DNA of 64,000 nt from a virus (taxonomy: Duplodnaviria; Heunggongvirae; Uroviricota; Caudoviricetes), in the IMG/VR virus record IMGVR_UViG_3300045971_000195, positions 1 through 64,000 of that record; one strand, written 5' to 3'. Made by a program: the position numbers and the translations under genes. Below, one piece after another: positions 41,725 through 64,000 of this stretch. Every line of letters starts with the position of its first letter. The first letter of the stretch is position 1. The notes under the pieces were generated by a model, which saw nothing but the letters and a program-made list of their open reading frames with translations, did not search any database and was not told where the DNA came from.

Positions 41725-41727
41725 ATG

Positions 41728-43477: not shown

Positions 43478-43485
43478 AGGATACT

Positions 43486-48405: not shown

Positions 48406-48408
48406 CAT

Positions 48409-48936: not shown

Positions 48937-49676
48937 ATATATTAATCACTGGTGGGAATGGCTATCTTGCCAGACACCTTGCATCTCATTTATCTAAAGC
49001 GCATAATGTATATGCGCCCGGTAGAGATCAGCTTGATTGTATGGATGCAGTTGCCGTAGAAGAATGTTTCAATATCCATAATTTTGATACAGTAATACAT
49101 ACTGCATTAACTGGGAGAGAAGTTTTATTTTCTCAGGAAAGAAAATATTGGGACGATGCTATAACGATGTGGAACAATGTGCGAAATCATAAAACTAAGT
49201 TTAAACAACTTATACATTTTGGTAGTGCATATGATATGTTTGATAATCCTTATGGTCAAGGAAAGAAAGCGATTGCAGAGAGTTGTGAAGTAACTGATAA
49301 CTTTTATAATTTAAGGTTATATGGTAATTTTCACTATACTGAAAAAGATACTCGATTTTTTAAAAAGATGTATAGTGAATCACATTTCGTAATTTCAGAA
49401 AATAAACAATTTGATTATTTTCATCTCGAAGATATATTTCCTATTGTAGATTTTGTAATTAACGAACACCCGGCTATTCGTGCTTTTGATGTTGTTTATA
49501 AAGAGAAGCGTACACTAATATCGCAAGCAATGGAGTTTTGCGAGTTAAACGAAATTAAACCTATATTAGAGGTTCTAAAAGAAGGAACTGATATGATAGG
49601 CAACAGTACTATACTCGATTCGTTTAACTTAAATCTCCAAGGGCTCGCAACAGGATTTACAAAATATAAATTATGA
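48933..49676 (+). CDS. NAD-dependent epimerase/reductase-like protein
   Basis: 'ILITGGNGYLARHL' Rossmann-like. Confidence 0.45.
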   Translation: MNILITGGNGYLARHLASHLSKAHNVYAPGRDQLDCMDAVAVEECFNIHNFDTVIHTALTGREVLFSQERKYWDDAITMWNNVRNHKTKFKQLIHFGSAYDMFDNPYGQGKKAIAESCEVTDNFYNLRLYGNFHYTEKDTRFFKKMYSESHFVISENKQFDYFHLEDIFPIVDFVINEHPAIRAFDVVYKEKRTLISQAMEFCELNEIKPILEVLKEGTDMIGNSTILDSFNLNLQGLATGFTKYKL

Positions 49677-50392
49677 AAATTAGAATTTCGTATCACATAG
49701 TTGCACAATACGGTTGGGAGGAGATTACAACTAACTGTATCAACAAAATGAAAAGATCTGGATTGTGGGATGCTGCAACAGAGATTCATATGATGTGTCA
49801 TTACCAGCCATCATTATTTTCAGAATTCACAAAAACTCTTAGTCCTAACGACGATCGTATTTACTGGCACTTGTTTACAAATAGTGTAGTAAAGAGAGGT
49901 GAAAGTTACACAAATAATAGACTAAAAGATATTTGCGATAACGATACTGAAGATTGGAATGTGTTAAGACTGCATAATAAAAGTTCTAACTATACACATC
50001 ATCCTGATCAAGTGCTTGCTTATAAATGGCGAGACCTTATGGAGTATTGGAATATCGAACGATGGGACCTGTTGTGTTCAAAACTTAATCAAGGATTTGA
50101 TGTAGCAGGTAACGAGTGGATGGACGAGCCGTGGCCACATTTTAGCGGTAATGTTTGGTGGGCAAAGAGTAGCTATATTAGAAAGTTACCAGCATTACCA
50201 TTGCCCCTAGATATTAATACTCCTGCAACAATAGATTTAAAAGGACATCCTCCAAGACACGAAGCAGAAGCATGGATGGGAATTGCATCCCCAAAAGCGT
50301 GGTCAGCACTCCCTGAACTAACTACTTGGGGTCACCCAAAAATAGGCGATGGTTGGGATAATCCTAACATCCCGTTTAACGATAAAGAATAA
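49673..50392 (+). CDS. hypothetical Trp-rich protein (239 aa) within glycan cluster
   Basis: ORF, overlapping stops/starts. Confidence 0.45.
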   Translation: MKIRISYHIVAQYGWEEITTNCINKMKRSGLWDAATEIHMMCHYQPSLFSEFTKTLSPNDDRIYWHLFTNSVVKRGESYTNNRLKDICDNDTEDWNVLRLHNKSSNYTHHPDQVLAYKWRDLMEYWNIERWDLLCSKLNQGFDVAGNEWMDEPWPHFSGNVWWAKSSYIRKLPALPLPLDINTPATIDLKGHPPRHEAEAWMGIASPKAWSALPELTTWGHPKIGDGWDNPNIPFNDKE

Positions 50393-51050
50393 TATGAAAA
50401 TTGGAATGGTACACCTATATACTGCAAACTACAAATCTATGGCAGAAATTACGTTACCGGGAAAAGAACAGTATGCAAAAAGACACGGATACACGTTGTT
50501 TAACAAAGATGACAAGTTTATTCCGAATGTTCACATCGGCACACAAAAATGTTACTATATACTCGAGTTAATGGAACAACATCCCGAAATAGAATGGTTC
50601 TGGCATGCCGGTACAGATTGCCTAATTACAAATCATAATATACCATTAGAAAGTTTGATAGATCCCAATCCAACCATACATTTTATTGTATGTAAGGACG
50701 ATCACGGTATTAATGCTGATGTGTTTTTTATTCGTAATTCTCAAGAAGGTAAAGATTATCTTCAACATTTAACAACGCCACATCCTGCATCAGGTACTGA
50801 GCAAGGACATATGTGGGACGACGAACATAATCCAGTGTGGCGTGCAATTACAACATATCTGCCTCAAGTGTATATGAATGCATATGATTTAAAACACTAT
50901 CCTCATAAACGAGGACTCGACGTATTTGGATCTAGGGGAAATTGGAATGTAGGGGATTTCCTTTTACATGCTGTTTCTGGTGCAGTTGCAGATGCATATC
51001 CCTGGAAACTGAACATTCTTAACGAACATATAAACGAAGTACAAAAATGA
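50349..51050 (+). CDS. GT34-like glycosyltransferase, paralog of 43486..44184 (likely start about 50394)
   Basis: 'YAKRHGY' and 'IEWFWHAGTDCLI'. Confidence 0.65.
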   Translation: MVGIILTSRLTIKNNMKIGMVHLYTANYKSMAEITLPGKEQYAKRHGYTLFNKDDKFIPNVHIGTQKCYYILELMEQHPEIEWFWHAGTDCLITNHNIPLESLIDPNPTIHFIVCKDDHGINADVFFIRNSQEGKDYLQHLTTPHPASGTEQGHMWDDEHNPVWRAITTYLPQVYMNAYDLKHYPHKRGLDVFGSRGNWNVGDFLLHAVSGAVADAYPWKLNILNEHINEVQK

Positions 51051-51766
51051 TAAACGATAATTTAATTAAAACTTGCTCATGCAGCAACAACAGTTCATTC
51101 CTTGCGAGCCGAGAAAATGATATAGACTTGTTAGTCTGCACTCATTGCGGCACCCCACATCAATATCTACCAGGTTGGACTCAAGACAAAGTAATCGAGT
51201 ATTATAAAAATCTGTATCATACAGATGCGCAGCAAGCAATTGGACATCAAGCATACAAGGATAGATATGAGCACGATCTTAAAATTGCAAATATTCGATT
51301 AAATTCATATACACATTTAACTCCAGGAATGATCGGGTTGGACATCGGTAGTTCTAATAGTGCGTTTGTACATGCTGCTCGCGCAAGAGGAATTACTTGT
51401 ATAGGTATTGAACCTGGTAAAGATATCGGAGATGATGCTACTACTATTAGACAGCCTATCCAAGAAGTATCATTACCTATTAGCAGTCAAGACTTTATTA
51501 CCATGCACGACAGTTTAGAACATATGGTAGATATCCGTGCTATTGTTGGAAAGATTCAGTCACTACTAAAAATCGGCGGGAACTTAATTGTTGATATCCC
51601 AGACTACTTTGTACCTGAAGGGTTGCATCACTGGCGCCCTGTTCAACATTTATGGTATTGGAACGAGCAGCAAATGATCAACTTACTAAAAGAATTCGGC
51701 CTTACTACTAATAAAGTAATAAGACCGATTCCTGGAAAGATTGTGTTTTACGCTACGTTAGATTAA
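51047..51766 (+). CDS. SAM-dependent methyltransferase with N-terminal zinc ribbon
   Basis: 'CSCSNN…CTHCGTPH' then 'GLDIGSSNSAF' motif I. Confidence 0.55.
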   Translation: MINDNLIKTCSCSNNSSFLASRENDIDLLVCTHCGTPHQYLPGWTQDKVIEYYKNLYHTDAQQAIGHQAYKDRYEHDLKIANIRLNSYTHLTPGMIGLDIGSSNSAFVHAARARGITCIGIEPGKDIGDDATTIRQPIQEVSLPISSQDFITMHDSLEHMVDIRAIVGKIQSLLKIGGNLIVDIPDYFVPEGLHHWRPVQHLWYWNEQQMINLLKEFGLTTNKVIRPIPGKIVFYATLD

Positions 51767-52548
51767 AAGTATTGAATGTTAATTCTAAAAGGATAGTAAA
51801 TTTCATTATTATCCAGCGTTTCGTTTTTTCTAGTTTCAAACCAACTAGTTTTGCCTAACGCAATAGCAATACCGCAAGGGCTGCTTTGATTACCGATAAA
51901 CAATTCTGATCCTGCTATTACGCGAGTCATTTGCAACATATCTTCTGTTTTGTAGTGTGGCACTGTTACTTTGAACAAATCTTCAAACCACGCATGTTCG
52001 TGATCTAATCCGATATATACACAGCGATTTGCAAGTCCAGAATTAAACCAATTCTGCCAAGTTGGATTTAGCGTCGGAGCTCCATCTAAGTAATGCGTAT
52101 TACGTGCAATTACTATAGGGCGATTCGGAACTTTAATAGGATTTTCACACTCTAGCCACGATTGTTGCTGTAGTTGTTCCTTATATAAGTTTGCATCAAT
52201 TCCTTGACTCGATGCATATTGATTTGCAAAGTTGCGTGGTTTAAGTCCACCTGCTTGATGATGTCTGCATACTTCTTCAAATTCGTTAGTTACTTGCTCA
52301 CCGTTCCATTTTTGGAAACTATGAATGTAGCTTTGCGATTTGATTAATGGTTCTAGGACATTGTAGTCTTTCTCAGTCATTCTACCACTATGTATACCAG
52401 CGCCCGGCCATCCTAGTTTTTCTAGGACCATATTATCCATATTATTCATTTTTAGGTAGAAGTCGCCGCCGCCTAAAATTTTTACAATTACTAGACTAGA
52501 TACAACGTCACCTAATGTACCCGAATGTGTAAACGATCTCTGTGTCAT
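51763..52548 (-). CDS. GT9-like glycosyltransferase, paralog of 42677..43477
   Basis: 'HSGTLGDVVSSLVIVK'; 'GNQSSPCGIAIALGK'. Confidence 0.5.
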   Translation of the reverse strand: MTQRSFTHSGTLGDVVSSLVIVKILGGGDFYLKMNNMDNMVLEKLGWPGAGIHSGRMTEKDYNVLEPLIKSQSYIHSFQKWNGEQVTNEFEEVCRHHQAGGLKPRNFANQYASSQGIDANLYKEQLQQQSWLECENPIKVPNRPIVIARNTHYLDGAPTLNPTWQNWFNSGLANRCVYIGLDHEHAWFEDLFKVTVPHYKTEDMLQMTRVIAGSELFIGNQSSPCGIAIALGKTSWFETRKNETLDNNEIYYPFRINIQYF

Positions 52549-52602
52549 AAATTATTCCTTTATGTATATACTAGCATAACGGAACATAAAGATCAATCTT
52601 TA

Positions 52603-53319
52603 TTATAGTTTTTCTGCTATAAACTCTGCTTCAGGGATTCTAGAATGGGTATCTTTGCTACCTAATACTACTACAATACGGCGTCCTACATCAGTATCGA
52701 GCATCATTACAATACATCCTCCGCTTGCGGCAATGTAGCCAGTCTTGCTTACCATAAAAGTATGTCGCTTGCCAATAATGGGATTGGTGTTATTAAACAC
52801 AAACCATTTTTTGCGTATATTAATTTTAATTTGTGGAGTTTTAGCTGCTTTCTGTATTTCAGAATACGATTGTGCTTCTACAACTAGTTTAACTAAATCT
52901 TCAGCAGTGCTTACATTAAACACACTTAATCCAGTTGCTTCGTGATAACGAGTGTTTAACATCCCTAACTTCAATGCTTTTTCGTTCATTGCCTTTACGC
53001 ACTCGTATTCGCCTTTTGGGTAATTACTGCATAGTGCCCTTGCAGACTCGTTGTCCGACTTTACCAATGCAAGTTGTATTAATTCTGCTCGGGTAAACTT
53101 TGTTACACGTTCATCTAACTTTTGATGTGCATCTAACACAACCATTACAGTCATTAGCTTAGTAATACTTGCGATTGCACGAACTTCTTCTATATTTTCA
53201 CTTTGAATTATAGTGCCAGTCCCGTCTGCTACTAACCAGCTTTTAGCTGTAATAGAAGACCAACCGGCATTTGCTGTTGAGTGTAGCAGCAATAATACTA
53301 GCAGAAATTTTCTGATCAT
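52603..53319 (-). CDS. D-alanyl-D-alanine carboxypeptidase (S11 PBP5/6-like)
   Basis: signal peptide; 'SITKLMT' SxxK; 238 aa. Confidence 0.6.
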   Translation of the reverse strand: MIRKFLLVLLLLHSTANAGWSSITAKSWLVADGTGTIIQSENIEEVRAIASITKLMTVMVVLDAHQKLDERVTKFTRAELIQLALVKSDNESARALCSNYPKGEYECVKAMNEKALKLGMLNTRYHEATGLSVFNVSTAEDLVKLVVEAQSYSEIQKAAKTPQIKINIRKKWFVFNNTNPIIGKRHTFMVSKTGYIAASGGCIVMMLDTDVGRRIVVVLGSKDTHSRIPEAEFIAEKL

Positions 53320-53633
53320 AAATCTGATGCATTTGGAAATATTAGTTGAGCTTGTTCACCTGAGCCTAAAATACAAGCTAACCCTTTTTCGTTATACTGA
53401 ATAATTGTCCAAGATTTATTAGTTCTGTTTACTGTAATAATAAATTTTGTATCTAATTGGATGCCATTCCAGAACGGAACTTCTTGATATTTTTCACCAG
53501 TTACTTCTTCGATGATTTGTTTCAACCCCCCGCATACCACAGGTACTTCTGATCGAAATAATTGAGACTGAGATTGGGCGTGGGCTATAAGGGTGGTTAG
53601 CCCGAATAGGACCGCCACTGCTAATTTACGCAT
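53316..53633 (-). CDS. small secreted protein (105 aa)
   Basis: signal peptide 'MRKLAVAVLFGLTTLIAHAQS'. Confidence 0.45.
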   Translation of the reverse strand: MRKLAVAVLFGLTTLIAHAQSQSQLFRSEVPVVCGGLKQIIEEVTGEKYQEVPFWNGIQLDTKFIITVNRTNKSWTIIQYNEKGLACILGSGEQAQLIFPNASDL

Positions 53634-53658
53634 AGTGGCTCTCCTTTTTTAGTATTTA

Positions 53659-55326
53659 TTAACTTGACGAAGGCAATGTTCCGATTGTCGGCTGGCTAGT
53701 TTTAAAGGCAGGCTTAGGTGCAATCTTCGGAGGCATTGTTTTTATGCCTGCATTCTTTTTAATAGTTGCTAATTCATCGGGCGGCTGAACCGCAGCCTGA
53801 GCAGGTTGTTGAACAGCAGGTTGTGCAGGAACCGATGCTTGTTTTTGTTCAATTTTTTCCCAATCTGCTAATTCTTTAAGTAAACTTCCCATTTCGATAA
53901 TATTACGAACAGCAGATGCTTGCATATAAGATCTATATTTTACTAATAGTTCTTTATGCGACCCCATTTCTTTCTTAACTTTTGTTGTAACAGGAAAGCC
54001 GTATATTTCAATAAAATGCATTTTTTCACTATTACCGCGTTTTACAACTAACTGATAATCGTTTAGTGCTTCTTTTAGAGGTGCTCCAAATGTTAATTCA
54101 CTAAATGCTTTCTTCGATGACGGTGTAAGAATAACCATTTCAACATTTTCTTCGTTGCGGGTTGCATGATGTAAAATACCGTCGTATACTTGTTTAACAA
54201 GCCCAATTTGATCAGTTTTTGCCATCCTAGCTAACGAACGTTCTATTTCATCATATGCTACTGTAAATCCGTTGAAATAATTTTCATCACGGACAGCTTC
54301 AACATCTGCTTTCTTCTCAGCTCGTGTCATTTTTTCTGTACTAGGAGCAGCGAACTTTTTCTGTACAGCAGGACTTAAACTCATGCCAACACTTTGTTGA
54401 AAGAATCCGTTTAGCGCATCAAATGCATATCCGCTAACCTGTCCGAACTGGCCGACTCGCCCTGCTTTAATGCTCAGTAGGTTAAAACTTTGTTTACCCT
54501 GTTCATTTGCAACTGATATTTTTAAATCAACTTTTGTAATTTTTTGTTGTTCTGCGTTACCGCCGTCACTTAACACATCTACTAAATTTTCTGTTGGATC
54601 ATCAGATGCTTTGCTCACAGCTAATTGAACACGTTTTGATGTGTTTACATAATCTACAGCACTAGCAATATGTTGTGTAATGCCTTTTATTGTGTCTGAT
54701 GGAATTTTATAGTCTGCTACAGACTTCTTCCCCATTCCTAAGTAAGCAAAGAATGCTTTCTTATCGATAAATGGAACACTTGCACTAAATGTGATGTTGT
54801 CTTTGCCGGAGTGTGTTTGTACAGTGCCCTTACCTTCTGCTAACCTTTTAGCCATTCCAATTACATCATCTTTACTAACAGGCTGTCCTTGCTTTTCGAA
54901 CTTTGTAGTAACTGCACATCCTAAAACTAATTCTGCAATGTTTCCTAAATTTGGTTTTAACTCGCCTTTTATCTTTTCATCTTTAAAAATTTGATTTAGC
55001 TTAACATTATTATAAATTTCGCCTTCAACTGGATTGCCATCGTCATCTAACCGTTGAACACTAAAAGTAATTGACTGCAACATTTTAGGATCTTTATGTG
55101 CAATAGCAGCTAGAAATTCGTTTGCAACTTTTTGTCCATTTTGTATAATACCATCGAAATTTTCACTATCAATACTAAACGAGTAAACATTATTTTCAGG
55201 CAACCCTTCAATAAACGGTTTCCAATAGTAATCTTTTACCCAGTCGTTTGATGATCCGCTGTACTTCATCAATCCTTCGACAATCGTGCTTTTAAATGGT
55301 GTTAGTAAAAATTCAGTTGCTCTCAT
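53659..55326 (-). CDS. hypothetical protein (555 aa) with Pro/Ala/Gln-rich C-terminal tail
   Basis: long ORF; C-terminal 'QPAVQQPAQAAVQPP'. Confidence 0.55.
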   Translation of the reverse strand: MRATEFLLTPFKSTIVEGLMKYSGSSNDWVKDYYWKPFIEGLPENNVYSFSIDSENFDGIIQNGQKVANEFLAAIAHKDPKMLQSITFSVQRLDDDGNPVEGEIYNNVKLNQIFKDEKIKGELKPNLGNIAELVLGCAVTTKFEKQGQPVSKDDVIGMAKRLAEGKGTVQTHSGKDNITFSASVPFIDKKAFFAYLGMGKKSVADYKIPSDTIKGITQHIASAVDYVNTSKRVQLAVSKASDDPTENLVDVLSDGGNAEQQKITKVDLKISVANEQGKQSFNLLSIKAGRVGQFGQVSGYAFDALNGFFQQSVGMSLSPAVQKKFAAPSTEKMTRAEKKADVEAVRDENYFNGFTVAYDEIERSLARMAKTDQIGLVKQVYDGILHHATRNEENVEMVILTPSSKKAFSELTFGAPLKEALNDYQLVVKRGNSEKMHFIEIYGFPVTTKVKKEMGSHKELLVKYRSYMQASAVRNIIEMGSLLKELADWEKIEQKQASVPAQPAVQQPAQAAVQPPDELATIKKNAGIKTMPPKIAPKPAFKTSQPTIGTLPSSS

Positions 55327-55334
55327 AGTGTTAT

Positions 55335-56006
55335 TTACCCTATTTCAGGAAACAGCACTTCTTCGATAAAATCCTTAACTAACGCTTTACTTAACCCTAA
55401 ACTTTCCATTACACGAGGGCTATGTGGATTTTGCTTCTGATAGTGGCAATAGCGATTCTGTGCCATATGAAAATCAGCACCACTTTGTTGTGTTAACCCT
55501 ACATTAGATAGGTAGTAATCTAAGTTATCGAGTCCTGCTTGAACAAACTGATTTAGCTCATCTACTTTATCTACCGCGCCCACTGCAATCATTGCAGGAC
55601 TAAAGATTGCCGCCGCCCAGTCAGGCAATTCTCGTGGCTTTTTCCAGTTTAATTCTGTTACACGTTGATCAAACCATTGCATCATGTAATGATTTGGGTC
55701 ACCTGCATTACTAAAATCGTGGAATCCGCCACTCATCCTGTTTGGCCCACACACCATATCAAATCCGAATATAGGACTATTATCGTTCGTATGCGGGAAA
55801 ATGCATACATGCATCATCCATAAGTTTTTAGTTTGTCGAGCATCTACAATATCAATGTGTGCTCTACGGTATGCCATACTATAGTACACATGATTAGCCC
55901 AAGGAAACTTGCTAGCCGCAGGCTCAGTTACATGCTCTCCAGTGGATTTGAATCGCTTGATAATTTCTTCAGAGCAAGCAATTGCTTTTTCAAATATAAT
56001 GCTCAT
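55335..56006 (-). CDS. ferredoxin-dependent bilin reductase (PcyA/PebS/PcyX family)
   Basis: 'WKKPRELPDWAAAIFS' and 'QNRYCHYQKQNPHSPRVMESLG' parallel PcyA blocks. Confidence 0.75.
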   Translation of the reverse strand: MSIIFEKAIACSEEIIKRFKSTGEHVTEPAASKFPWANHVYYSMAYRRAHIDIVDARQTKNLWMMHVCIFPHTNDNSPIFGFDMVCGPNRMSGGFHDFSNAGDPNHYMMQWFDQRVTELNWKKPRELPDWAAAIFSPAMIAVGAVDKVDELNQFVQAGLDNLDYYLSNVGLTQQSGADFHMAQNRYCHYQKQNPHSPRVMESLGLSKALVKDFIEEVLFPEIG

Positions 56007-56551
56007 TCTTCAACTGGAAGTGGAAGAGCTGCATCGTATTCCTTCATAATACGGATACCCCAGTCAAACGCAATATTAGCTTCATCAGCCATGCTGTCAT
56101 TTAACTTATTACGGATAGTTACTTTAAGTTTTTCAACATCATCAAAATCAAGATTACGATGTGGGAACGGGAGAAGTTTGCGAATAATTTGGCCACCGTG
56201 CAAATCACCCATGTGCCACACATAAAGATGTGCCATAATTTTATCCGGCTGTCCTACTAGATCTAGTATGTAGCGACAATAATCGATGGTAACTTTATTA
56301 ATTTTCGGAAAGTTGCCATTGCACATTTCTTTTGCGTCGAGATAAAGATTTACAGCACGTTCAACTTCTAAGCAATCAAGTGTTAGCTTTTCGTATCGTG
56401 CGACATTTTCAATTGAATCATAAAACACTGATTTTTGATAAGTGTAATCTGCCCAGACTTCATGAGTCATACGACCCTTAATTGCAGCTCGCATAAAGTT
56501 AGTGCGTTCTGCTTCTGTGTGCTTATCTTTAGTTAAATCTTTTAAACTCAT
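56003..56551 (-). CDS. heme oxygenase
   Basis: 'LKDLTKDKHTEAERTNFMRAAIKGRMT' (proximal His helix) and 'AHLYVWHMGDLHGGQIIRK' match HO-1 blocks. Confidence 0.8.
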   Translation of the reverse strand: MSLKDLTKDKHTEAERTNFMRAAIKGRMTHEVWADYTYQKSVFYDSIENVARYEKLTLDCLEVERAVNLYLDAKEMCNGNFPKINKVTIDYCRYILDLVGQPDKIMAHLYVWHMGDLHGGQIIRKLLPFPHRNLDFDDVEKLKVTIRNKLNDSMADEANIAFDWGIRIMKEYDAALPLPVEE

Positions 56552-56880
56552 TCTGTTTCTACTTTAATTAATAGTGGATGCCCATATTGACGAGCAAGGC
56601 CAGTAGCCTCGACACCCTTCTGCTCTGCGATTTCAAAAGGATAAATTCCTGCAACTGCATAACCATCATTATGAATTTTCATAGTTAAGTCCAGTGCAAT
56701 ACTTTCAGAATGTCGAAACACCTTAATTAACATTGCCACTACAAAATCAACTGGAGTCTTGTCATCGTTATACACAACAACTTTATATTTGCTAGGTTCC
56801 TGAATTTTAATTTTATTAGTAGCGCGGGTTTTAGTAATCGTTTCTGACATTGTAATTCCTATTATGTGTGTATTTAACAA
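56548..56880 (-). CDS. clpS: ClpS-like Clp protease adaptor
   Basis: 'YKVVVYNDDKTPVDFVVAMLIKVF' ClpS core. Confidence 0.7.
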   Translation of the reverse strand: MLNTHIIGITMSETITKTRATNKIKIQEPSKYKVVVYNDDKTPVDFVVAMLIKVFRHSESIALDLTMKIHNDGYAVAGIYPFEIAEQKGVEATGLARQYGHPLLIKVETE

Positions 56881-56904
56881 AGTGGGGGTCTCCCCCCACT
56901 TATT

Positions 56905-57405
56905 TTAAGTAGATTTAATTGAGATCTTTTTAGGTTTCTTTTCTTCGGGGATGTTGCGTATTAAGTTGATAAGCAGTAAGCCATCTCGTATTTCAGCATC
57001 CCCGACTTCCAGAAACCCTTCCAGTCTAAAGAATCTTTCAAAGTTCCGAGCACTTAACCCTCTATGCATGTATTCACCTGTAGGGTGCTCGGTTGCTTTT
57101 GTGCCAGTTACAATCAAATGATTGTTTTGTACAGTTAGCTCAATCTCATCTTTGCGGAAACCCGCGACTGCGATTTGAATCTCGTAATTATCCTCATCAT
57201 GTTTAATGACATTATGTGGAGGGTAGTTATTTTGGATTTGGTTAGCAAATCGTGATTCGAAATCGTTAATGATTTGATCAAAACCTACAAGGGCTCTGTT
57301 TAGAGAGGTGGTATCGAAACGTACTAATTGATTCATAGTTTTCTCCTTTATTAAGCAAGAATCATATTGGGCACCATTGCCCGGTTTTTGTAGAACCCGA
57401 AGCAT
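56905..57405 (-). CDS. Hsp20/alpha-crystallin small heat-shock protein
   Basis: 'YEIQIAVAGFRKDEIELTVQNNHLIVTG' ACD pattern. Confidence 0.7.
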   Translation of the reverse strand: MLRVLQKPGNGAQYDSCLIKEKTMNQLVRFDTTSLNRALVGFDQIINDFESRFANQIQNNYPPHNVIKHDEDNYEIQIAVAGFRKDEIELTVQNNHLIVTGTKATEHPTGEYMHRGLSARNFERFFRLEGFLEVGDAEIRDGLLLINLIRNIPEEKKPKKISIKST

Positions 57406-57418
57406 TCTACTATTTTAT

Positions 57419-57910
57419 TTATCCCTGAAAGATCTCATCTAGCCAAATTTTGCATTCTGGCCATTGTTTGTAAATGTGCGATCTGCCGCCTGCATCACGC
57501 CATTCAATACAGTTACTTGTTCTATCGTCAATCAAAATATCGCCGGGTTTACAGTGTCGATATTTGTCATGGCTAAAAGGCCCAAAAAATACAGGAATTC
57601 CTTCAAAGTGCTTGTGTGCCCACCAAACTTTGTCTTGTGCTGCAAACGGTACAGAATAGTCATGCGGTAGTGCTGATAGGAATGCTAAGTTGTCTGCTTT
57701 ACCGTTTGCTACTTGATCCCGACAGTATTGCACAAGTTCTGTAGCACCGGGTTTTAGATCAAGTTTTGAATAGAATCGATGATCATTCTTTAGTCGAGCC
57801 CAATCGTAGTTAGGAATGCGTTCAACATTGCCCCACTTCATACCTAAGTAATCTTGGGCATGCGTGATCCAATCTGCAACCACATCGTCCATATCTAAGT
57901 AAATATCCAT
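57419..57910 (-). CDS. 5'(3')-deoxyribonucleotidase-like HAD hydrolase
   Basis: 'IYLDMDDVVADW' (DxDx[TV] plus ADW). Confidence 0.55.
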   Translation of the reverse strand: MDIYLDMDDVVADWITHAQDYLGMKWGNVERIPNYDWARLKNDHRFYSKLDLKPGATELVQYCRDQVANGKADNLAFLSALPHDYSVPFAAQDKVWWAHKHFEGIPVFFGPFSHDKYRHCKPGDILIDDRTSNCIEWRDAGGRSHIYKQWPECKIWLDEIFQG

Positions 57911-57917
57911 TTTGTTC

Positions 57918-58187
57918 CTAAGTTGACCATTTCAATATAAACAGTATAACATCTTTTTCGTTACTTAGCAACCAGTTGCTACCCAACCCTTGTATTTTCC
58001 CCCCACAGTGCTTATCTGCCCATTCTTTAATATCAACCCGCGAATAGTGATCTGCCGATTTACATTGTATCCACCCTTGTTCGCATAACATTCGAGTCAT
58101 AATTTCAAAGTCGATTTCTTTTCGGATCTCGTCTGCTAACATATCGGAAAGTTCTTTAGATATTGACTTTGACATTATTAGCTCCAC
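57918..58187 (-). CDS. F-x-L-R-W family small protein (array member 1)
   Basis: 89 aa; C-terminal 'ILFILKWST'. Confidence 0.5.
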   Translation of the reverse strand: MELIMSKSISKELSDMLADEIRKEIDFEIMTRMLCEQGWIQCKSADHYSRVDIKEWADKHCGGKIQGLGSNWLLSNEKDVILFILKWST

Positions 58188-58402
58188 AGCAATGCGAACA
58201 TTGTTTTAGTTGCGTCATCGACATACGAATCGTGTATCTCTGCCTGCCACTGTATCTTTTGATTATCTGGAGTAACTGATACCCACATAGACCAACCTTC
58301 GCCGCGATACATGCCACCTGATTGGCGCTGCGGCGGCCCTACATTTGATGCGAGCCAGTTTGCAATAGAATCTACTTTGCCGGAATTAATTTTTATCTTC
58401 AC
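58178..58402 (-). CDS. F-x-L-R-W family small protein (array member 2)
   Basis: 74 aa; 'ANWLASNVGP…TMFALLWS'. Confidence 0.5.
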   Translation of the reverse strand: MKIKINSGKVDSIANWLASNVGPPQRQSGGMYRGEGWSMWVSVTPDNQKIQWQAEIHDSYVDDATKTMFALLWS

Positions 58403-58686
58403 GTTCTTGCCAATTCTAATAATATTTTGTATTGTTCGTATGCCTTCATTACTGTGGTGTTGTTCTTCCTAACAATAGTGTCTGCTTCTATTTCGTACAA
58501 CGTAGTAGCAAGCTCTGTAAACTTTTGGCCATCCATTGTCATTTCAACAGTTGAACCTCTAAACACCTTTGTCGGATAACTACCCATAACTTCAACATTA
58601 ACAGTATCATACTTAACTTCAAGTCGTTGCGGATAGTAAGTTTGTTGAAAACTTCTATAAACTTCTTCGTTCACGGAGTACTCCAT
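58399..58686 (-). CDS. hypothetical small protein within array (95 aa, family motif not evident)
   Basis: ORF with 4-nt overlap to neighbour. Confidence 0.4.
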   Translation of the reverse strand: MEYSVNEEVYRSFQQTYYPQRLEVKYDTVNVEVMGSYPTKVFRGSTVEMTMDGQKFTELATTLYEIEADTIVRKNNTTVMKAYEQYKILLELART

Positions 58687-58916
58687 CGCAACACGAACAT
58701 TGTAGCATCTTTTGGATTTTTAAAAAAGAATGTTGGGTCCTTTTGAATCCAGCCGCATTTCCAACGGCCTTTGCTATTACTTTTGCCAAAAGTATCTTCG
58801 CACCATTGTCGTTGCTCCGGTACCTTTCCAACATGCAGCAGGCCACCGGTAATCGCTACTTTTATTTTATACTTGCTTCGACGTGTTGTGTGTTTTAGCA
58901 TAATCATACTCCCCAC
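58671..58916 (-). CDS. F-x-L-R-W family small protein (array member 3)
   Basis: 'RQWCEDTFG…ATMFVLRWSTP'. Confidence 0.55.
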   Translation of the reverse strand: MGSMIMLKHTTRRSKYKIKVAITGGLLHVGKVPEQRQWCEDTFGKSNSKGRWKCGWIQKDPTFFFKNPKDATMFVLRWSTP

Positions 58917-59317
58917 CTTAGTAAAAACATTAGATAATCTTTCTCATCGCGGAAATGAATACTTGATTCGTATCTGTGCCACCAACGACTCCAAGCATCT
59001 GGACGTTTATCATGTTTTCCAAATTGTTTTGCACACCATTCATCTACTTCATCATAGAAGGTTGCATCAAACTCTGCTATGTACCATTTAGCACGGCTGA
59101 ATTTGTACTTCTTGTGGAACTTAACAATGTTAGGATCCTGTGTTGTCATTTTTTGCGTGAATATTAATCCTGCAGAAAGCGGCATAGGCTGTACGCCTAT
59201 AATTTGTTGTGCAATCAACGATGGCATCATTTTTGTTATCATCGGCAGTATTACGTTTTTCATTTTTGTTTCAATATAAAAAATGTTAAGTATTTTTCGG
59301 GAATATCTAACTCCCAT
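58904..59317 (-). CDS. F-x-L-R-W family protein (array member 4, 137 aa)
   Basis: 'DEWCAKQFG…YLMFLLRWGV'. Confidence 0.55.
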   Translation of the reverse strand: MGVRYSRKILNIFYIETKMKNVILPMITKMMPSLIAQQIIGVQPMPLSAGLIFTQKMTTQDPNIVKFHKKYKFSRAKWYIAEFDATFYDEVDEWCAKQFGKHDKRPDAWSRWWHRYESSIHFRDEKDYLMFLLRWGV

Positions 59318-59463
59318 TTAATATTAGGAACCGGAACAACTGACATTGCCTCTACTATCTCAAGACACTTTAGTTTATCAATATCGTATTCAACACACAT
59401 CTTGATTAAATTTATTGCTGTCATACACGGCAACGGATCTAAATCTACTATCATTTCCCCCAC
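59260..59463 (-). CDS. possible degenerate array member (67 aa)
   Basis: 'KYLTFFILKQK' C-terminus; overlaps neighbour substantially. Confidence 0.3.
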   Translation of the reverse strand: MGEMIVDLDPLPCMTAINLIKMCVEYDIDKLKCLEIVEAMSVVPVPNIKWELDIPEKYLTFFILKQK

Positions 59464-59723
59464 CTTATTAAAAACATTGTCTTATCGCTTGCTTTAACAA
59501 AATACATCCATCCTGGATATCCATTTCCCCTATACCATGTATCTGTTGCGAACGTTTGCTCACACCACTTGCTCATTGCTAAAATCTCTGCATCGTAATA
59601 ATTGATTAGAGATGCACGATGTGGCATAACTACCCGATTCACTCCGTAATCTACAACAAGCGAATCTTTTGGGATTACTTTTATCTTCCGTTTCTTCTTG
59701 GGCTTTTTCATTTGCCGGCCCAT
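59451..59723 (-). CDS. F-x-L-R-W family small protein (array member 5)
   Basis: 'SKWCEQTFA…KTMFLIRWGK'. Confidence 0.55.
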   Translation of the reverse strand: MGRQMKKPKKKRKIKVIPKDSLVVDYGVNRVVMPHRASLINYYDAEILAMSKWCEQTFATDTWYRGNGYPGWMYFVKASDKTMFLIRWGK

Positions 59724-59920
59724 CGTAGTAGAAACATCAAATGATCCTTTTCGCTATAAAAATAAATTCTTCCGATCCTAACAAACCATCTTCCTGCACT
59801 TACTGGACCTAAATTGTCCGTTAGCCAAGTTACTAACTCTTTTGGTACACCCACTGACTGGTTTAATTCTACAATATGGTATTCGTGATTTACTTTAATT
59901 TCCATTATTATTTCCCCCAC
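59708..59920 (-). CDS. F-x-L-R-W family small protein (array member 6)
   Basis: 'VTWLTDNLGP…HLMFLLRWAGK'. Confidence 0.55.
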   Translation of the reverse strand: MGEIIMEIKVNHEYHIVELNQSVGVPKELVTWLTDNLGPVSAGRWFVRIGRIYFYSEKDHLMFLLRWAGK

Positions 59921-60162
59921 CTTAATAAAAAGAGTGTTAAATCTTGCTTGTCTCTAAATCGTATTTCACCCCACATTATATCATCTTTCCACCGTGGACG
60001 AGATGTATCAACTACTAATCCTGGAGCTCCGTATATTTCCTTGCACCATGTCCGCATGTCGTCCCGTTTCGCGTTCTCTGCCCTTAGTGCAGCGCCCCAA
60101 GCATTAAAGGCAGCTACCCAATAACCGAATTCAGTAAATTCTTGATATACATGAAATTTCAC
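59908..60162 (-). CDS. F-x-L-R-W family small protein (array member 7)
   Basis: 'RTWCKEIYG…LTLFLLRWGK'. Confidence 0.55.
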   Translation of the reverse strand: MKFHVYQEFTEFGYWVAAFNAWGAALRAENAKRDDMRTWCKEIYGAPGLVVDTSRPRWKDDIMWGEIRFRDKQDLTLFLLRWGK

Positions 60163-60386
60163 AAGTGTCCAAACTTTAAAGCAAACACAAGGGCGGGACG
60201 TTCGTTTTCAAACTGAAAGATTGTCCCGCCACCTTGCAGCCATTGCACATAGTATCTGTCAAAATCGCTTGCTTCGCTTATATTTGTACTGCACCAATTA
60301 AACATTGCATCAGTACTATCTTTAACTTTCACTTTATGGCGGAAATTAGGATTAGACATGCCGCCCTCGCTATGATATCTTTTCAT
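60159..60386 (-). CDS. F-x-L-R-W family small protein (array member 8)
   Basis: 'FNWCSTNIS…ALVFALKFGHL'. Confidence 0.5.
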   Translation of the reverse strand: MKRYHSEGGMSNPNFRHKVKVKDSTDAMFNWCSTNISEASDFDRYYVQWLQGGGTIFQFENERPALVFALKFGHL

Positions 60387-60628
60387 CGCTTTATAATATA
60401 ATTGCTATACTGTAATATAAACATACTTGCATGCTTTTCAGTGTAAAATGAAAATACTGTGTGTCTTATTGTAAAGTCAAACGTATCGTTTTCATACCTC
60501 TCTGATATTCCCCCGGGGTTGAAACTAAAATCAAAGTCCACTCCTTGTACCATTCCTTGCTTTCGCAAAGACTGAACAATATCAGTTACTTCATTAGCTT
60601 TCTTCTTCCATAGCTTAACTTCGATCAT
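60383..60628 (-). CDS. F-x-L-R-W family small protein (array member 9, divergent)
   Basis: 'KHASMFILQYSN'. Confidence 0.45.
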   Translation of the reverse strand: MIEVKLWKKKANEVTDIVQSLRKQGMVQGVDFDFSFNPGGISERYENDTFDFTIRHTVFSFYTEKHASMFILQYSNYIIKR

Positions 60629-60839
60629 CTACATGTAATTCTCTTAAATTAGGATGACTGCCCCATCGTAGTAAAAACAGTGCTACATCTTTTTCTTCTG
60701 CAAAGTAGAACCCGTTATGACCTGCATCCCATCGTTTACCGATATTACCAAACTGGTCTCGTGCCCATTCGAAGTATTCGTTCTCCAACGGAGCAATACT
60801 CGTATCTCTAATAAAAAATTTAAAATCCATTAAACTCAC
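60615..60839 (-). CDS. F-x-L-R-W family small protein (array member 10)
   Basis: 'FEWARDQFG…VALFLLRWGSHP'. Confidence 0.55.
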   Translation of the reverse strand: MSLMDFKFFIRDTSIAPLENEYFEWARDQFGNIGKRWDAGHNGFYFAEEKDVALFLLRWGSHPNLRELHVDDRS

Positions 60840-61068
60840 TCCACCTTAATACAAACATCGACAAGTGCTTTGCTTCTTTAAACGCATAGGTTGTATTTCC
60901 AAACATACTATGCATAACCCAAATCTTGCCGTCCATACCTTCCCAAGTTTTTGGAGTTGCATAAGACCAACCGCCTAATCCAATATTTTCATGACACCAT
61001 TTTTCCATTGCTGGATGCTGATGATAGCGTTCTTTGCCAAATGTAATCCAGCTTGCTGTATTGTTCAT
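60820..61068 (-). CDS. F-x-L-R-W family small protein (array member 11)
   Basis: 'EKWCHENIG…LSMFVLRWSEF'. Confidence 0.55.
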   Translation of the reverse strand: MNNTASWITFGKERYHQHPAMEKWCHENIGLGGWSYATPKTWEGMDGKIWVMHSMFGNTTYAFKEAKHLSMFVLRWSEFNGF

Positions 61069-61460
61069 GAATATTTCAATGCTATTAACACAGCATCCTT
61101 ATCATTGTTAGTTCCTACAAACACCTGGTCACCTCCACTAAACTCATTAAAGTGAAAGCATCCGTCCCAGCGATTCTTTTCGCCTCTTGCAAAGTGATAC
61201 ACTGTGCAATTATCTAAGTCTCGTCGAGGGTACATATACTGTTGAAAGTCTTTATTAGGTACCCAACCATGCGGTTCGTTGTGATCAAATATTTTGGTAG
61301 ACACAGGAAGTATATACTTAAAGTTCATAAACATATTTTCAATTGTATTAGCACGGCGAACAATATTTTCTTCTTGCCACTTACGCCAATCTCGTTCTTG
61401 CTTTGATAAGCCAGTTCGCCATGTAAGCCACTTGTCTTTTATGTACGCTTTCATGCCCAC
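61065..61460 (-). CDS. F-x-L-R-W-related protein (array member 12, 131 aa, divergent)
   Basis: 'DKDAVLIALKYS' C-terminus. Confidence 0.45.
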   Translation of the reverse strand: MGMKAYIKDKWLTWRTGLSKQERDWRKWQEENIVRRANTIENMFMNFKYILPVSTKIFDHNEPHGWVPNKDFQQYMYPRRDLDNCTVYHFARGEKNRWDGCFHFNEFSGGDQVFVGTNNDKDAVLIALKYS

Positions 61461-61729
61461 CTCAATATAAACATAGTACGATCTGCTTCATTTCGAAACC
61501 AAAATCGTTGGTCATTCATATACCAACGTTGACATCCTTCGTCCCAACAGCTTGCAGGTTCTCCAAATATTTTAGTTGTCCACTTCTCCATCTCTTGCCA
61601 GTTCGCAAACACTGGCCTTACAACAAAATACTTTGCACCGTGCAACCGCTTTTCTTCTATATACATTTTCGATTCCGGAATGTAAGGGCAATATATCGAA
61701 GCATGCAATGTTGTTAGTACCCTGACCAT
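61451..61729 (-). CDS. F-x-L-R-W family small protein (array member 13)
   Basis: 'EKWTTKIFG…RTMFILRWA'. Confidence 0.55.
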   Translation of the reverse strand: MVRVLTTLHASIYCPYIPESKMYIEEKRLHGAKYFVVRPVFANWQEMEKWTTKIFGEPASCWDEGCQRWYMNDQRFWFRNEADRTMFILRWA

Positions 61730-62028
61730 GCTAGTGCCAACATAGAATAAAGTTTTTCATGAACATCAAACTTATTAGCATCCACTGGCCAATTGGTACT
61801 CGGATGTTCATACCAAAGTTCTTTAGATTGATTTCGAATCCAATAGCCTGCTTGCGACGATACTAATACAGTATACCACATTGAACCATCTACTACTGCT
61901 TTATCAATCATTGTAATCTTTCTAGTTAGTATATTCCGCGCATGTACATAGTACATGCTCTTTCCAGTATGCCGTGCGGAATATACTATAGGCATCTCGC
62001 TGTTTTCTATCGACACAACTTCTTTCAT
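61714..62028 (-). CDS. hypothetical protein (104 aa)
   Basis: ORF overlapping array start. Confidence 0.4.
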   Translation of the reverse strand: MKEVVSIENSEMPIVYSARHTGKSMYYVHARNILTRKITMIDKAVVDGSMWYTVLVSSQAGYWIRNQSKELWYEHPSTNWPVDANKFDVHEKLYSMLALAWSGY

Positions 62029-62861
62029 ACTTCAAAGTAGAATGCAGGGTCGAAGATCGTTGCTTGAAACTCATGTCCTGCATAACCACGAGGGTTACTC
62101 ATCACATGCGTATCGCCAATCATGTAATCAACTGGATCATGCATGTGTCCGTGAACCCATGCTTGAATCTGCGGATGATCCATAATGAACTCGGTTAAAT
62201 TACTATGATAACCAAAATTCATATGGAAGTCCCGACCGTCTTGATAATGCGGAGCAATACTCAACGGGCTAGGTGCATGATGACTAATAACAACAACCTT
62301 ATCGTTTTCGTGACAGTCCAAAAACAACTTTAACGATTCTACAGTCTCTTTGAATACACCTGCAACATAAGCAGGAGTGAACTTGTTTGTATAGTATGAG
62401 TCACCGTAAGGCAACTGAATCTTAATACTATCGCCGTGCTTGATTGAAGAGAAATCGTACATACTTTGCTCAACAACTTGCATAGTCAGCGGATCACGCT
62501 TGTTCATATCAGTCCAGAACGTTCCCCCGAAGAAATGCACATCCTCGATCTGCATACTTTCTGCTTCGAGGATACGGACGTTATCGGGCATTTCACGCTT
62601 TAAGCGTGCCGGAGTATCTTGGTAACTATTGCTGTAATGTTCATGATTACCCAAAACGTAAATTACCTGTTCGTACTTAATGAATTCTTCGTTGATAAAA
62701 CGACGATACCGATCTGCAAGGAACGTGTCCTTTTTAGTATTATCTGCAAGACGTAAGTGCCCTGCTTCCATAATATCACCCGCAGCGATAAGGACATCTC
62801 CGCCAGGAAGAATCAGATCTTCAAAATTCAAATGCACATCGGAAATCAAATTAATTTTCAT
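62025..62861 (-). CDS. calcineurin-like metallophosphoesterase (278 aa)
   Basis: 'ISDVHLN', 'GDIME', 'GNHEHY', 'GHMHD' motifs; consensus promoter immediately upstream. Confidence 0.7.
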   Translation of the reverse strand: MKINLISDVHLNFEDLILPGGDVLIAAGDIMEAGHLRLADNTKKDTFLADRYRRFINEEFIKYEQVIYVLGNHEHYSNSYQDTPARLKREMPDNVRILEAESMQIEDVHFFGGTFWTDMNKRDPLTMQVVEQSMYDFSSIKHGDSIKIQLPYGDSYYTNKFTPAYVAGVFKETVESLKLFLDCHENDKVVVISHHAPSPLSIAPHYQDGRDFHMNFGYHSNLTEFIMDHPQIQAWVHGHMHDPVDYMIGDTHVMSNPRGYAGHEFQATIFDPAFYFEV

Positions 62862-62885
62862 GGCTATCCTTAAAAATATTACTCT

Positions 62886-62922
62886 CTTAATACAATTATA
62901 ACAGGTATTACCTAATCTGTCA
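62886..62922 (-). promoter_or_regulatory. sigma70-type promoter TTGACA-N17-TATAAT
   Basis: minus-strand reading CTTGACAGATTAGGTAATACCTGTTATAAT. Confidence 0.65.
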
Positions 62923-63430
62923 AGTCTAATCTGTAGTTAGAAGCGAGCAAAGCTCACTTGAGATGTCGCTTATCGCTCATCTCTTTTATAGAGAGAAGAT
63001 ATATTATCCAGATTCTGGAGTCAGATTTTGCCCTTTTTACGGGCAAAAAAAATGAAATTATCCGAGTTCCTTTCATCGGTAGCATGTGGCGTGTATAGAG
63101 GCGGTCATCCGGTACCTCGAGCCATGATCTTATATATGACGGCGGACTGTACATGCAAGCTACCACATATACAGCCGTGGGAGTACTACTCCCTCATTTA
63201 GCCTTTGGTGAAACATATTCAAACAGCAAAATCGGTTGTACGTAGGCGTATCCGATCATCATCCTTGCGGGTAGTTGCTAAGTACTTTTTTTGACCAAAA
63301 AGAATTTACTGTCCCCGTGACCCTAGGTCCGGTTATCATAGGCACACGGAATAAGCCTGTGCAAGCATCATGTCATAGTTGTTTATTATATAACAAATCT
63401 TAAAGTACATGTTTGGTTAAATACATATAT

Positions 63431-64000
63431 TATGCTCAAACCAAAAACACAAGACGCAATTTCAGCCAGCTTAGAAAAACTTAAAACAGACGGAAACTAT
63501 CGTGTGTTCACAGATATCCTAAGAGAACGTGGAAAGTTCCCTAACGCAATTTACTATGGACGTTACAATATTAAACACATTACTAATTGGTGTTCAAACG
63601 ACTACTTAGGTATGGGACAACACAAAGTAGTGCTCGATGCTATGCATACCGCTTTGGATCATGCCGGTGCCGGCGCCGGGGGGACACGCAACATTTCCGG
63701 AACAACTCACTATCATGTTGCACTAGAAAGCGAACTTGCGAAATTACACGATAAAACATGTGCTTTGACCTTTACAAGTGGCTATGTTGCTAACCAGTCA
63801 ACTCTGTCGGTTTTAGGTCTTTTATTGCCTAATGTCCACTATATTTCAGACGAAAACAATCATAATTCGATGATTGTAGGCATTAGATCTAGTAAAGCAC
63901 CTAGAACAGTGTGGCGTCACAATGATCTCAAACATTTAAAAGAAATCCTAGAAAGCTTAGACCCCGCTTGCCAACCCATAATTGCAATGGAGGGAGTGTA
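63431..64000 (+). CDS. hemA: 5-aminolevulinate synthase (ALAS/HemA-type), 5' partial (runs off window)
   Basis: hand translation: '…WCSNDYLGMGQH…GAGAGGTRNISGTTHYH…FTSGYVANQ…DENNHNSMI' close to ALAS consensus; not in ORF track because no stop in window. Confidence 0.8.

Follow-up and report, generated by a model that had tools for sequence, protein, structure and literature searches.

Near one end of a 64,000-nucleotide (nt) stretch of tailed-virus DNA (Caudoviricetes; IMG/VR record IMGVR_UViG_3300045971_000195, positions 1 to 64,000, hereafter the window) lies a chain of small, overlapping, minus-strand genes, and the question it raises is what these genes encode and why so many similar copies stand in a row. 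An initial annotation, made from the sequence alone, had described 57918-61729 as a tandem array of about 13 rapidly diversifying paralogs with a common C-terminal motif, and had suggested a host-takeover or anti-defence family. The analysis reported here found at least 12 members of one undescribed protein family, arranged in what appears to be a translationally coupled operon. We favour, at a rough probability of 0.45, the joint reading that this operon is coupled and expressed early, and that its products are non-enzymatic binding modules acting early in infection.

A family of small paralogous genes

The list of open reading frames (ORFs) resolves 57918..62028 into a chain of 16 minus-strand ORFs without breaks, each of 64–129 amino acids (aa), which were labelled m16 to m01 in the direction of transcription. 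Fifteen of them lie within the segment first described, and the sixteenth is 61714..62028 (m16). A hidden Markov model (HMM) profile was built from the eight clearest members and searched against the 836 six-frame ORFs of the window. It recovered four array members outside its build (m10, m11, m02 and m01) and one solitary ORF, with the next match at E = 2.4; a locally iterated profile that took in two related loci scored all 13 between 7.5e-8 and 3e-22, and the next match stood at E = 0.17. Three ORFs (m06, m14 and m16) share with the family profile only a terminal helix of 11–14 residues, which is not significant. The profile comparisons thus point to a membership of at least 12 of the 16 small genes, possibly 15. 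The array is real, and its estimated size of about 13 genes is corrected to 16 ORFs with 12 confident members; the recovery of members outside the profile build, together with hundreds of homologs (see below), bears out the proposal of paralogs with a shared C-terminal scaffold.

At pairwise identities of only 20–33%, two positions (W19 and F56) are invariant and three more (F47, L58 and W60) almost invariant, and the shared motif is not low complexity, so that it withstands the doubt raised at the outset that composition or chance might have produced it. The domain comprises about 60 aa, and AlphaFold2 predicts for m15 a beta-alpha-beta-beta-alpha arrangement (predicted local distance difference test, pLDDT, 89.5; predicted template modelling score, pTM, 0.74) with strands at residues 4-6, 38-41 and 44-47 and helices at 13-24 and 50-60. 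Most of the conserved residues are aromatic or hydrophobic, which fits a structural core, and variation is found in the loop between alpha1 and beta2 (about 6–25 residues) and in the N-terminal leaders. No catalytic signature was found in the family proteins.

No model in Pfam-A, NCBIfam or PHROGs matches the shared C-terminal domain, a sequence search of the PDB gave chance matches only, and a fold search of the PDB likewise found no relative, in agreement with the first impression that the motif is not a named domain. Secretin N-domains and KH-like and ACT-like sandwiches have a similar architecture, at 0–15% identity; this is a common small fold, and the matches are no evidence of shared ancestry or function. 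The family has no sequence or fold similarity to solved anti-defence proteins. Searches for HNH, GIY-YIG, LAGLIDADG, Vsr-like and Hint domains gave no Pfam match at E <= 0.1 in any array protein, and no nuclease rose above background in the fold search. The best BFVD matches (up to 43% identity) are each an 'Uncharacterized protein [uncultured Caudovirales phage]', so the family is present in UniProt but unnamed. Literature searches for a description of the family returned nothing relevant.

Arg-Trp codons as a candidate ribosome-binding site

The genes of the array are tightly packed. With starts taken from two independent gene callers, ten junctions are 4-nt overlaps of the ATGA/GTGA type, four are overlaps of 11–16 nt and the remaining two are small gaps. 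The bases before most starts in the window read ...TTAAGGTGGGG..., which are also the codons for the conserved L-R-W-G near the end of the preceding protein. This pattern extends to the wider family, where 509 of 562 ORFs carry x-W near the end and 432 of those 509 stop exactly one residue past the Trp. The Arg of L-R-W is encoded by AGG in 74% of 413 cases, against 8% of the 2,824 other Arg codons of the same ORFs, and the commonest 8-mer is AGGTGGTC. Where another ORF starts within 12 nt the share of AGG is 70%, and elsewhere it is 17% (Fisher p = 6e-14); the next start most often follows TGG at a distance of 2 nt (291 of 413). The sequence AGGUGGUC pairs, with one G-U pair, with the 3' end of the 16S rRNA, GAUCACCU, to which the 8-mer AGGTGGTC is likewise complementary. 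Two members with no coupled gene downstream, m01 and the solitary ORF at 7978..8172, have Lys instead of Arg (AAA in m01).

From these codon statistics we conclude that AGG-TGG (Arg-Trp) doubles as the Shine-Dalgarno site of the next cistron, a new feature that the initial annotation had missed. Start/stop overlaps are thereby combined with a ribosome-binding site within the upstream gene, as in translationally coupled operons, and the coupling first suggested by the overlaps gains support from the ten 4-nt junctions and the enrichment of AGG. Such a double role would also account for three features of the array: the copies are co-oriented, they are tightly packed, and the domain is fixed at the C-terminus just before the stop codon.

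Transcription of the array

A perfect match to the sigma-70-type promoter consensus (TTGACA, 17 nt, TG-n-TATAAT; 12/12) is located on the minus strand at 62895..62923, and no comparable site was found inside the array. This proposed promoter lies 34 nt upstream of the start of a metallophosphoesterase gene (62025..62861, minus strand; Pfam PF00149, E 3.1e-9), the first cistron, and the stop of this gene overlaps the start of m16 by 4 nt. At the other end, a gene for an NT5C-type 5'-nucleotidase (57419..57910, minus strand; Pfam PF06941, E 5e-7) begins 7 nt past m01, and is followed by a gene for an HSP20 small heat-shock protein (56905..57405, minus strand; Pfam HSP20 on the identical locus L004, see below), which is probably the last cistron. 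A GC-rich hairpin, AAGTGGGGGTCTCCCCCCACTT, between HSP20 and ClpS (56880..56901) is a candidate terminator. This arrangement suggests a single operon of about 6 kb that would be read by host RNA polymerase and hence early. The gene rIIB is found a few kb upstream of the operon, and the consensus sigma-70 promoter and rIIB together agree with the early-region setting proposed at first.

Conservation and selection

Paralogs of the window were compared with their orthologs in the related locus L002, where amino acid identities are 83% for m05, 78% for m06, 75% for m07, 61% for m12 and 57% for m15. The corresponding proportions of nonsynonymous differences (pN, by the method of Nei and Gojobori) are 0.09, 0.10, 0.115, 0.25 and 0.30, while those of synonymous differences (pS) in the array genes are 0.56-0.96 (m06 0.56) and saturated. 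For the flanking genes pN is 0.25 (metallophosphoesterase), 0.33 (HSP20) and 0.26 (ClpS), and the array genes are therefore conserved as much as, or more than, the flanking enzyme genes. The ORFs are real genes under strong purifying selection, and the paralogs are old, since each has its own orthologs with low pN and saturated pS. The description of the family as rapidly diversifying is not upheld by these figures (57–83% identity between orthologs, pN 0.09-0.30); the aspect that changes fast is which members each array holds.

Distribution

A word-indexed search returned 303 proteins, all hypothetical, and the precomputed Pfam field was empty ('-') for almost all of the 120 homologs listed. 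An exhaustive profile search of 1.84 billion representatives gave 2,539 matches at E <= 1e-3, each standing for a cluster at 50% identity, and 121 at E <= 1e-10. Among the 150 listed, all but one are 56–172 aa long with the domain at the C-terminal end. P0176, an SF2 (superfamily 2) helicase of 1,176 aa with seven partial matches, was rejected as a member because only helix alpha1 (WC..NFG) matches. Its seven C-terminal repeats are read as helicase-associated, and the likeness of their first helix (EIQNWCNQNFG) to alpha1 of the family is probably convergence. Two metagenome proteins, P0220 and P0276, contain two tandem copies of the domain in one polypeptide, from which it follows that neighbouring cassettes can fuse.

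A scan of IMG/VR with the m05 subfamily found 70 loci, on contigs of up to 374 kb, with 528 domain copies in all (1–22 per locus), and all 528 are co-oriented with the query. The order metallophosphoesterase, array, (HSP20), ClpS is kept in L001 (a 353-kb contig) and in L002, whose arrays have no fewer than 10 and 11 members, respectively, and synteny of the metallophosphoesterase and the array is seen in L001, L002 and L004. In another, more distant lineage (L012-L069 of the IMG/VR loci), many arrays lie between genes for a UvsW-like helicase (upstream) and a gp41-like helicase (downstream), and are not flanked by metallophosphoesterase and ClpS; several of these contigs are 260–374 kb long, and hence from jumbo phages. 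Searches of 50,697 cultured-phage records by tblastn with m15 and with P0079, an abundant m13-type homolog, found no relative at that sensitivity. A single peptide pattern of the m05 subfamily, searched against 185,579 prokaryotic species at one genome per species, likewise found no relative. As found, the family occurs only in viral and metagenome sequence.

N-terminal leaders derived from core phage proteins

The leader of m05, which the initial annotation had overlooked as a capsid-protein fragment, matches the Pfam family Gp23 (PF07068) with residues 4-35 (positions 3-59 of the model, E 3.4e-9) and residues 84-115 of Syn9 gp23 (E 1.7e-5), a segment that presumably corresponds to T4 residues 93-122. 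It covers the most conserved part of T4-type major capsid proteins, the conserved N-terminal segment around GVQPM that is typical of Gol peptides, and nine further homologs share the Pfam Gp23 match. Across 36 diverged members of the m05 subfamily, the conservation of P-x-L-I-A-Q-x-I-x-G-V-Q-P-M equals that of the domain core. The Gol segment is described as the most conserved part of gp23, and is reported to bind domains II-III of EF-Tu and to activate the Lit protease (PMC3014915).

To survey the leaders, 279 family proteins were trimmed of the domain, and those leaders that were 15 aa or longer (156) were compared with the Syn9 proteome, along with five shuffled sets. Forty-three of the 156 match Syn9 gp23, 39 of them at residues 78-126 and four, including m15, at the C-terminal DAGLFYCPYVPL. 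About 20 leaders match NrdA residues 462-475, MSNLCQEITLPTDP, which form the catalytic Cys/Glu motif, and others match motif A (SFDLNSLYPHLI) and motif B (KIQLNSAYG) of PolB. The shuffled leaders gave 0 matches to gp23 and 0–4 to NrdA. One family protein has a sub-threshold Pfam match to DNA_pol_B_2 (E 8e-4). A leader with a Walker A motif matched DnaB-type helicases by tblastn (E 0.07–1), and its profile found the terminase first (E 0.03) and gp41 second (E 0.06) in Syn9, so that it resembles both. Eleven leader matches to a Syn9 2-oxoglutarate oxygenase ORF all go back to one string, NLCKEI, and were set aside as coincidental. By our reading of its sequence, the leader of P0201 would chain an ExoI-like motif, Walker A, PolB motif B and the reductase motif. 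Leaders made of the most conserved motifs of core proteins (gp23, NrdA, PolB, Walker A) have, to our knowledge, not been described previously. Among the leaders of the window only that of m05 is a secure case; those of m01 and m15 match gp23 weakly.

The leaders are translated and constrained: over the 24 ortholog pairs in which they can be aligned, pN is 0.25 and pS 0.63, and for the Gp23 fragment of m05 against L002 the values are 0.17 and 0.75. Since leaders are alignable in only 24 of 239 ortholog pairs, they have often been exchanged.

Proposed function and alternative explanations

In the proposed scheme, a host-type sigma-70 promoter (62923..62895) would drive expression of the metallophosphoesterase, the 16 small overlapping genes, NT5C and HSP20, and each cassette would hand the ribosome to the next by way of AGG-TGG, the next start usually lying 2 nt on. 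The family proteins would be small binding modules without enzymatic activity, each directed at a different target and made early to re-programme or disarm the host, and some leaders would display a copy of a highly conserved core phage peptide, that of m05 being the Gol region of gp23. The non-enzymatic binding reading is favoured because the proteins combine the absence of a catalytic signature with a hydrophobic and aromatic core and a variable loop and leaders. A role in host takeover or anti-defence, as originally suggested, is plausible.

Several points weigh against this reading. A binding, host-directed role is most likely, and is deduced from absent catalytic residues and genomic setting; early transcription is deduced from a single consensus promoter match, in a region where the total of promoter-like sites is not above the shuffled expectation. 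The hairpin at 56880..56901 has its better T-run on the plus strand, and its role on the minus strand is assumed. The C-terminal motif is partly constrained at the nucleotide level, so protein conservation there overstates structural constraint. By profile comparison, m03 is not a member, and the membership of m06, m14 and m16 cannot be shown. In the AlphaFold2 model of m05 the leader has a pLDDT of 54–72 (87–93 for the domain), and how the leader is presented cannot be read from it. Our first reading of the Walker A leader as terminase was dropped, since gp41/DnaB-type helicases match comparably.

A different view is that the genes are selfish cassettes, which spread by recombination at their conserved 3' ends and are maintained because every copy provides the ribosome-binding site for the gene beside it, with little or no benefit to the phage; the leaders would then be scars of double-strand-break repair at homing endonuclease or intein hot spots. 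The arrays of close relatives do differ in content through gain, loss and shuffling while their flanks remain syntenic, copy number ranges from 1 to 22, and the leaders are modular and often swapped (24 of 239 alignable). The NrdA active site, the PolB motifs and the P-loop are all places where homing endonucleases and inteins classically insert; in NrdA the position immediately before the thiyl-radical Cys, on its N-terminal side, is the most frequent intein insertion point of reductases (PMC2677866), and an HNH gene is present about 7 kb upstream of the array in L004. Against this, orthologs have been kept across deep divergence under strong purifying selection on both domain and leader, nuclease, Hint and recombinase motifs were not found in the array proteins, and no repeats or flanking elements were identified. 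The fragments also span the known insertion point (NLC-x-EI-x-LP) on both sides and do not end there. The constraint on the leader peptides favours function over a recombination scar, and we regard the cassettes as unlikely to be purely selfish.

The leaders could instead be the active part, with the C-terminal domain a mere carrier and the leader a mimic that competes with the real core protein for a host factor such as EF-Tu or for a host immune sensor of short conserved motifs. The leader of m05 covers the most conserved segment of gp23, the one reported to define Gol function and to bind EF-Tu, its V-Q-x-M is conserved like the domain core in 36 diverged members, and an early promoter would put such a mimic in the cell ahead of late capsid synthesis. 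Capsid protein, DNA polymerase and helicase/RecA-type ATPases are documented targets of host STAND (signal transduction ATPases with numerous domains) receptors, and short motifs of the capsid protein are what Lit and CapRel recognise (PMC13581612). The sensed proteins named in that paper do not include ribonucleotide reductase, however, motifs of 8–12 residues are unlikely to imitate epitopes at the level of a fold, and a Lit-type system could just as well be set off by a Gol-like peptide. Leaders are often replaced and are absent in most members (at least 8 of the 12 in the window have no recognisable core-protein leader), which argues against mimicry as the family-wide role, and we consider it rather improbable. 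More doubtful still is a general display system, in which an early 60-residue carrier would present the least mutable phage peptides (Gol, the NrdA loop, PolB, the P-loop) and so pre-occupy host factors such as EF-Tu, or the sensors, ahead of the genuine proteins. That the genes encode virion or assembly proteins, either minor capsid or scaffold-associated, is suggested by the capsid matches in Pfam and PHROGs (m05 and, weakly, m01) and by the name given to P0002 by the Joint Genome Institute (JGI), 'predicted phage tail protein'. The m05 match covers only positions 3-59 of the 376 of Gp23 and falls within the leader, outside the shared domain; such matches are lacking in most members, and no match spans the HK97-type capsid fold, m05 and m01 having 119 and 89 aa compared with about 450–520 aa for capsid proteins. 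The operon adjoins rIIB and auxiliary metabolic genes behind a sigma-70-type promoter, far from any structural module, and tblastn against the 50,697 phage records matches the leader to genuine capsid genes only and the domain to nothing (for the relative P0011, query coverage is at most 54%, all of it in the leader), making a virion role very improbable. Finally, short ORFs are common in AT-rich DNA and three ORFs match by a helix of 11–14 residues alone, which might point to a chance or compositional motif, or to ORFs that are not genes. This is refuted by members outside the profile build that score down to 2.5e-7 (next match E = 2.4), by hundreds of orthologs from independent samples and an identical contig in a second sample, by pN far below pS, and by the confident fold prediction. 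The reading of early, coupled genes for non-enzymatic binding modules is preferred over all of these.

Members of the array

All members are encoded on the minus strand and are given here in the order of transcription. The first, m16 (61714..62028, 104 aa), is a doubtful member in which only the C-terminal helix HEKLYSMLALAWSGY is family-like and the profile score is not significant; its ortholog in L001 is 30% identical. It is followed by the confident member m15 (61451..61729, 92 aa; HMM 3.9e-20), which ends in RTMFILRWA and whose leader contains YCPYIP, which resembles the C-terminal YCPYVP of gp23 in a weak match (E 0.07–0.15). The next ORF, m14 (61065..61454, 129 aa), is again doubtful, as profile comparison aligns only its C-terminal helix NDKDAVLIALKYS. 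Residues 22-120 of m14 give a sub-threshold Pfam match to the IMP-specific 5'-nucleotidase ISN1 (E 8.9e-4), which may be another captured fragment, or chance. The confident member m13 (60820..61068, 82 aa; HMM 9.6e-22) has a long alpha1-beta2 loop and is the prototype of an abundant subfamily (SWITFGKDRYHQH...) with many orthologs, and m12 (60615..60830, 71 aa; HMM 2.2e-13), also confident, has a tail of 12 residues beyond LRWGS. Two less typical members follow: m11 (60383..60628, 81 aa; ASMFILQYSNYIIKR) is divergent, with an HMM score of 2.9e-4 outside the profile build and 7.5e-8 after iteration, and m10 (60159..60386, 75 aa; ALVFALKFGHL) scores 6.5e-6 outside the build.

Three confident members lie in the middle of the array, namely m09 (59908..60162, 84 aa, GTG start; HMM 9.8e-19; orthologs P0101 and P0114), m08 (59708..59905, 65 aa; HMM 3.4e-14) and m07 (59451..59711, 86 aa; HMM 1.8e-15), the last with orthologs at 75% and 56% identity. 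The N-terminal tail of m07 is strongly basic (KKPKKKRKIKVIPK; MKKPKKKRKIKVIPKDSLVVDYG...) and is kept in its orthologs P0080, P0087, L001 and L002, a hint that this paralog may bind nucleic acid. Only the C-terminal PEKYLTFFILKQK of m06 (59260..59454, 64 aa) aligns with the family, and its membership is doubtful. The strongest member is m05 (58904..59263, 119 aa; HMM 2.9e-29), with the family domain at about 55-119 and the leader at 4-35. The confident member m04 (58671..58907, 78 aa, or 76 aa in the JGI call; HMM 4.2e-17) contains, within its R-W codons (CGATGG), the ATG of m03 (58399..58686, 95 aa), which is embedded in the array and by profile comparison is an unrelated non-member. An equivalent of m03 is found at the same position in L002, directly after the m05 ortholog, at 42% identity. 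The GTG-initiated m02 (58178..58402, 74 aa; TKTMFALLWS) is a divergent member scoring 5.5e-4 and 1e-4, both outside the profile build. The last member, m01 (57918..58187; HMM 1e-3 outside the build), ends in ILKWST and has 89 aa if initiated at the GTG at 58187 or 74 aa from the ATG at 58142; its leader gives a weak match to the spine-helix region of gp23 (Pfam Gp23 positions 170-197, E 0.0043; PHROG major head protein, E 0.0064).

Of the two outliers proposed at first, one is a family member: the solitary minus-strand ORF at 7978..8172 (64 aa; profile hit 7981..8193) ends in MFALKWLSK and matches at 2.5e-7 outside the profile build. The other, 18989..19288, has no profile support and was rejected.

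Source genome and neighbouring genes

Directly downstream of the operon lies a block (55335..56880) with genes for ClpS (56548..56850), heme oxygenase (56003..56551) and a ferredoxin-dependent bilin reductase (55335..56006; Pfam E 3.8e-18), and these auxiliary genes of cyanophage type point to a cyanobacterial host. The presence of rIIB, a T4-type RNA ligase, heme oxygenase and bilin reductase identifies the source as a T4-like, cyanophage-type genome. It is far from cultured phages: megablast of the region against the 50,697 phage records gave no match, and the best protein match of a neighbouring 555-aa protein is at 26% identity to Synechococcus phage ACG-2014f. That ORF (53659..55326) has no Pfam domain, and its only cultured-phage relatives are hypothetical proteins of ACG-2014f, at 26% over half its length.

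The contig L004, from another sample, is 100% identical across window positions 51451..64000 and extends 7.7 kb beyond the window. The extension encodes an aminotransferase, DUF454, an Rv2179c-like exonuclease, rIIB, a 729-aa protein, an HNH endonuclease and an AAA protein. The HNH endonuclease gene (L004 2387..2836) lies about 5.3–5.8 kb past the window end, and about 7 kb upstream of the array, and is flanked by a 384-aa gene (preceded by the AAA-protein gene) and by the 729-aa gene that precedes rIIB.

Elsewhere in the window, a long minus-strand block of small genes includes a T4-type RNA ligase 1 (28526..29440; Pfam E 9.5e-19) and an SPFH/Band 7 protein (17702..18682; E 7.9e-9). A 472-aa protein (22936..24354) combines DUF7788 (E 9e-48) with DUF2828, and the same domain pair occurs near the array in L001. 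A block of sugar-nucleotide and glycan genes occupies 42677..51766 on the plus strand and 40789..42570 on the minus strand, and contains a DegT/DnrJ aminotransferase (44184..45503) and NAD-dependent epimerases/dehydratases (47428..48405 and 40789..41724). A similar block adjoins the array in L001 and L002, and it may serve to modify a surface or DNA sugar.

Relation to known systems

The hyperplastic regions of T4 and the host-takeover module of SPO1 are clusters found in the early region near rII, variable in content, whose products presumably lack enzymatic activity and target host proteins. As in the present array, they consist of many small, co-oriented ORFs behind a strong host-type promoter. 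Their ORFs are mostly unrelated, whereas here at least 12 are paralogs of one domain; moreover, the genes here are chained by overlaps, their putative ribosome-binding site lies within a conserved protein motif, and no homolog was found in a cultured phage. Anti-CRISPR-type loci likewise hold small proteins with no known domain that are clustered, variable between relatives and probably early, but those are unrelated families, often with a regulator gene.

The m05 leader and 39 leaders of relatives align to the segment around GVQPM that forms the Gol region of gp23. Unlike Gol in gp23, the segment here stands apart from the capsid protein, as part of a fusion with an unrelated small domain, behind a promoter of early type. 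The leaders also recall the fractured genes and the insertion hot spots of inteins or homing endonucleases in cyanophage-like genes described by Dassa et al. in 2009 (PMC2677866), which involve the same proteins and share the active-site Cys motif of NrdA. In that study the gp41 helicase is fractured at position 356 of P-SSM2 gp41 (PMC2677866), and its gp41 helicase and phage terminase may correspond to the Walker A leader. PolB motifs are present among the leaders too; broken PolB genes are cited in PMC2677866 only as background. In contrast to fractured genes, the family has no Hint or endonuclease domain, and the fragments are short, intact motifs that lead another gene, not halves of an enzyme.

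Taken as a whole, the array belongs to a large unnamed family, and modelling that family would put a name to several hundred genes now called 'hypothetical' in the genomes of aquatic T4-like and jumbo phages. The dual coding, in which a conserved protein motif is also the ribosome-binding site of the next cistron, gives a simple mechanical reason for the formation and persistence of such arrays. The leaders bear on how phages evade sensors of their core proteome, and on how recombination at homing hot spots shapes phage genes. If the display reading were true, the leaders would represent a modular decoy strategy against bacterial pattern recognition.

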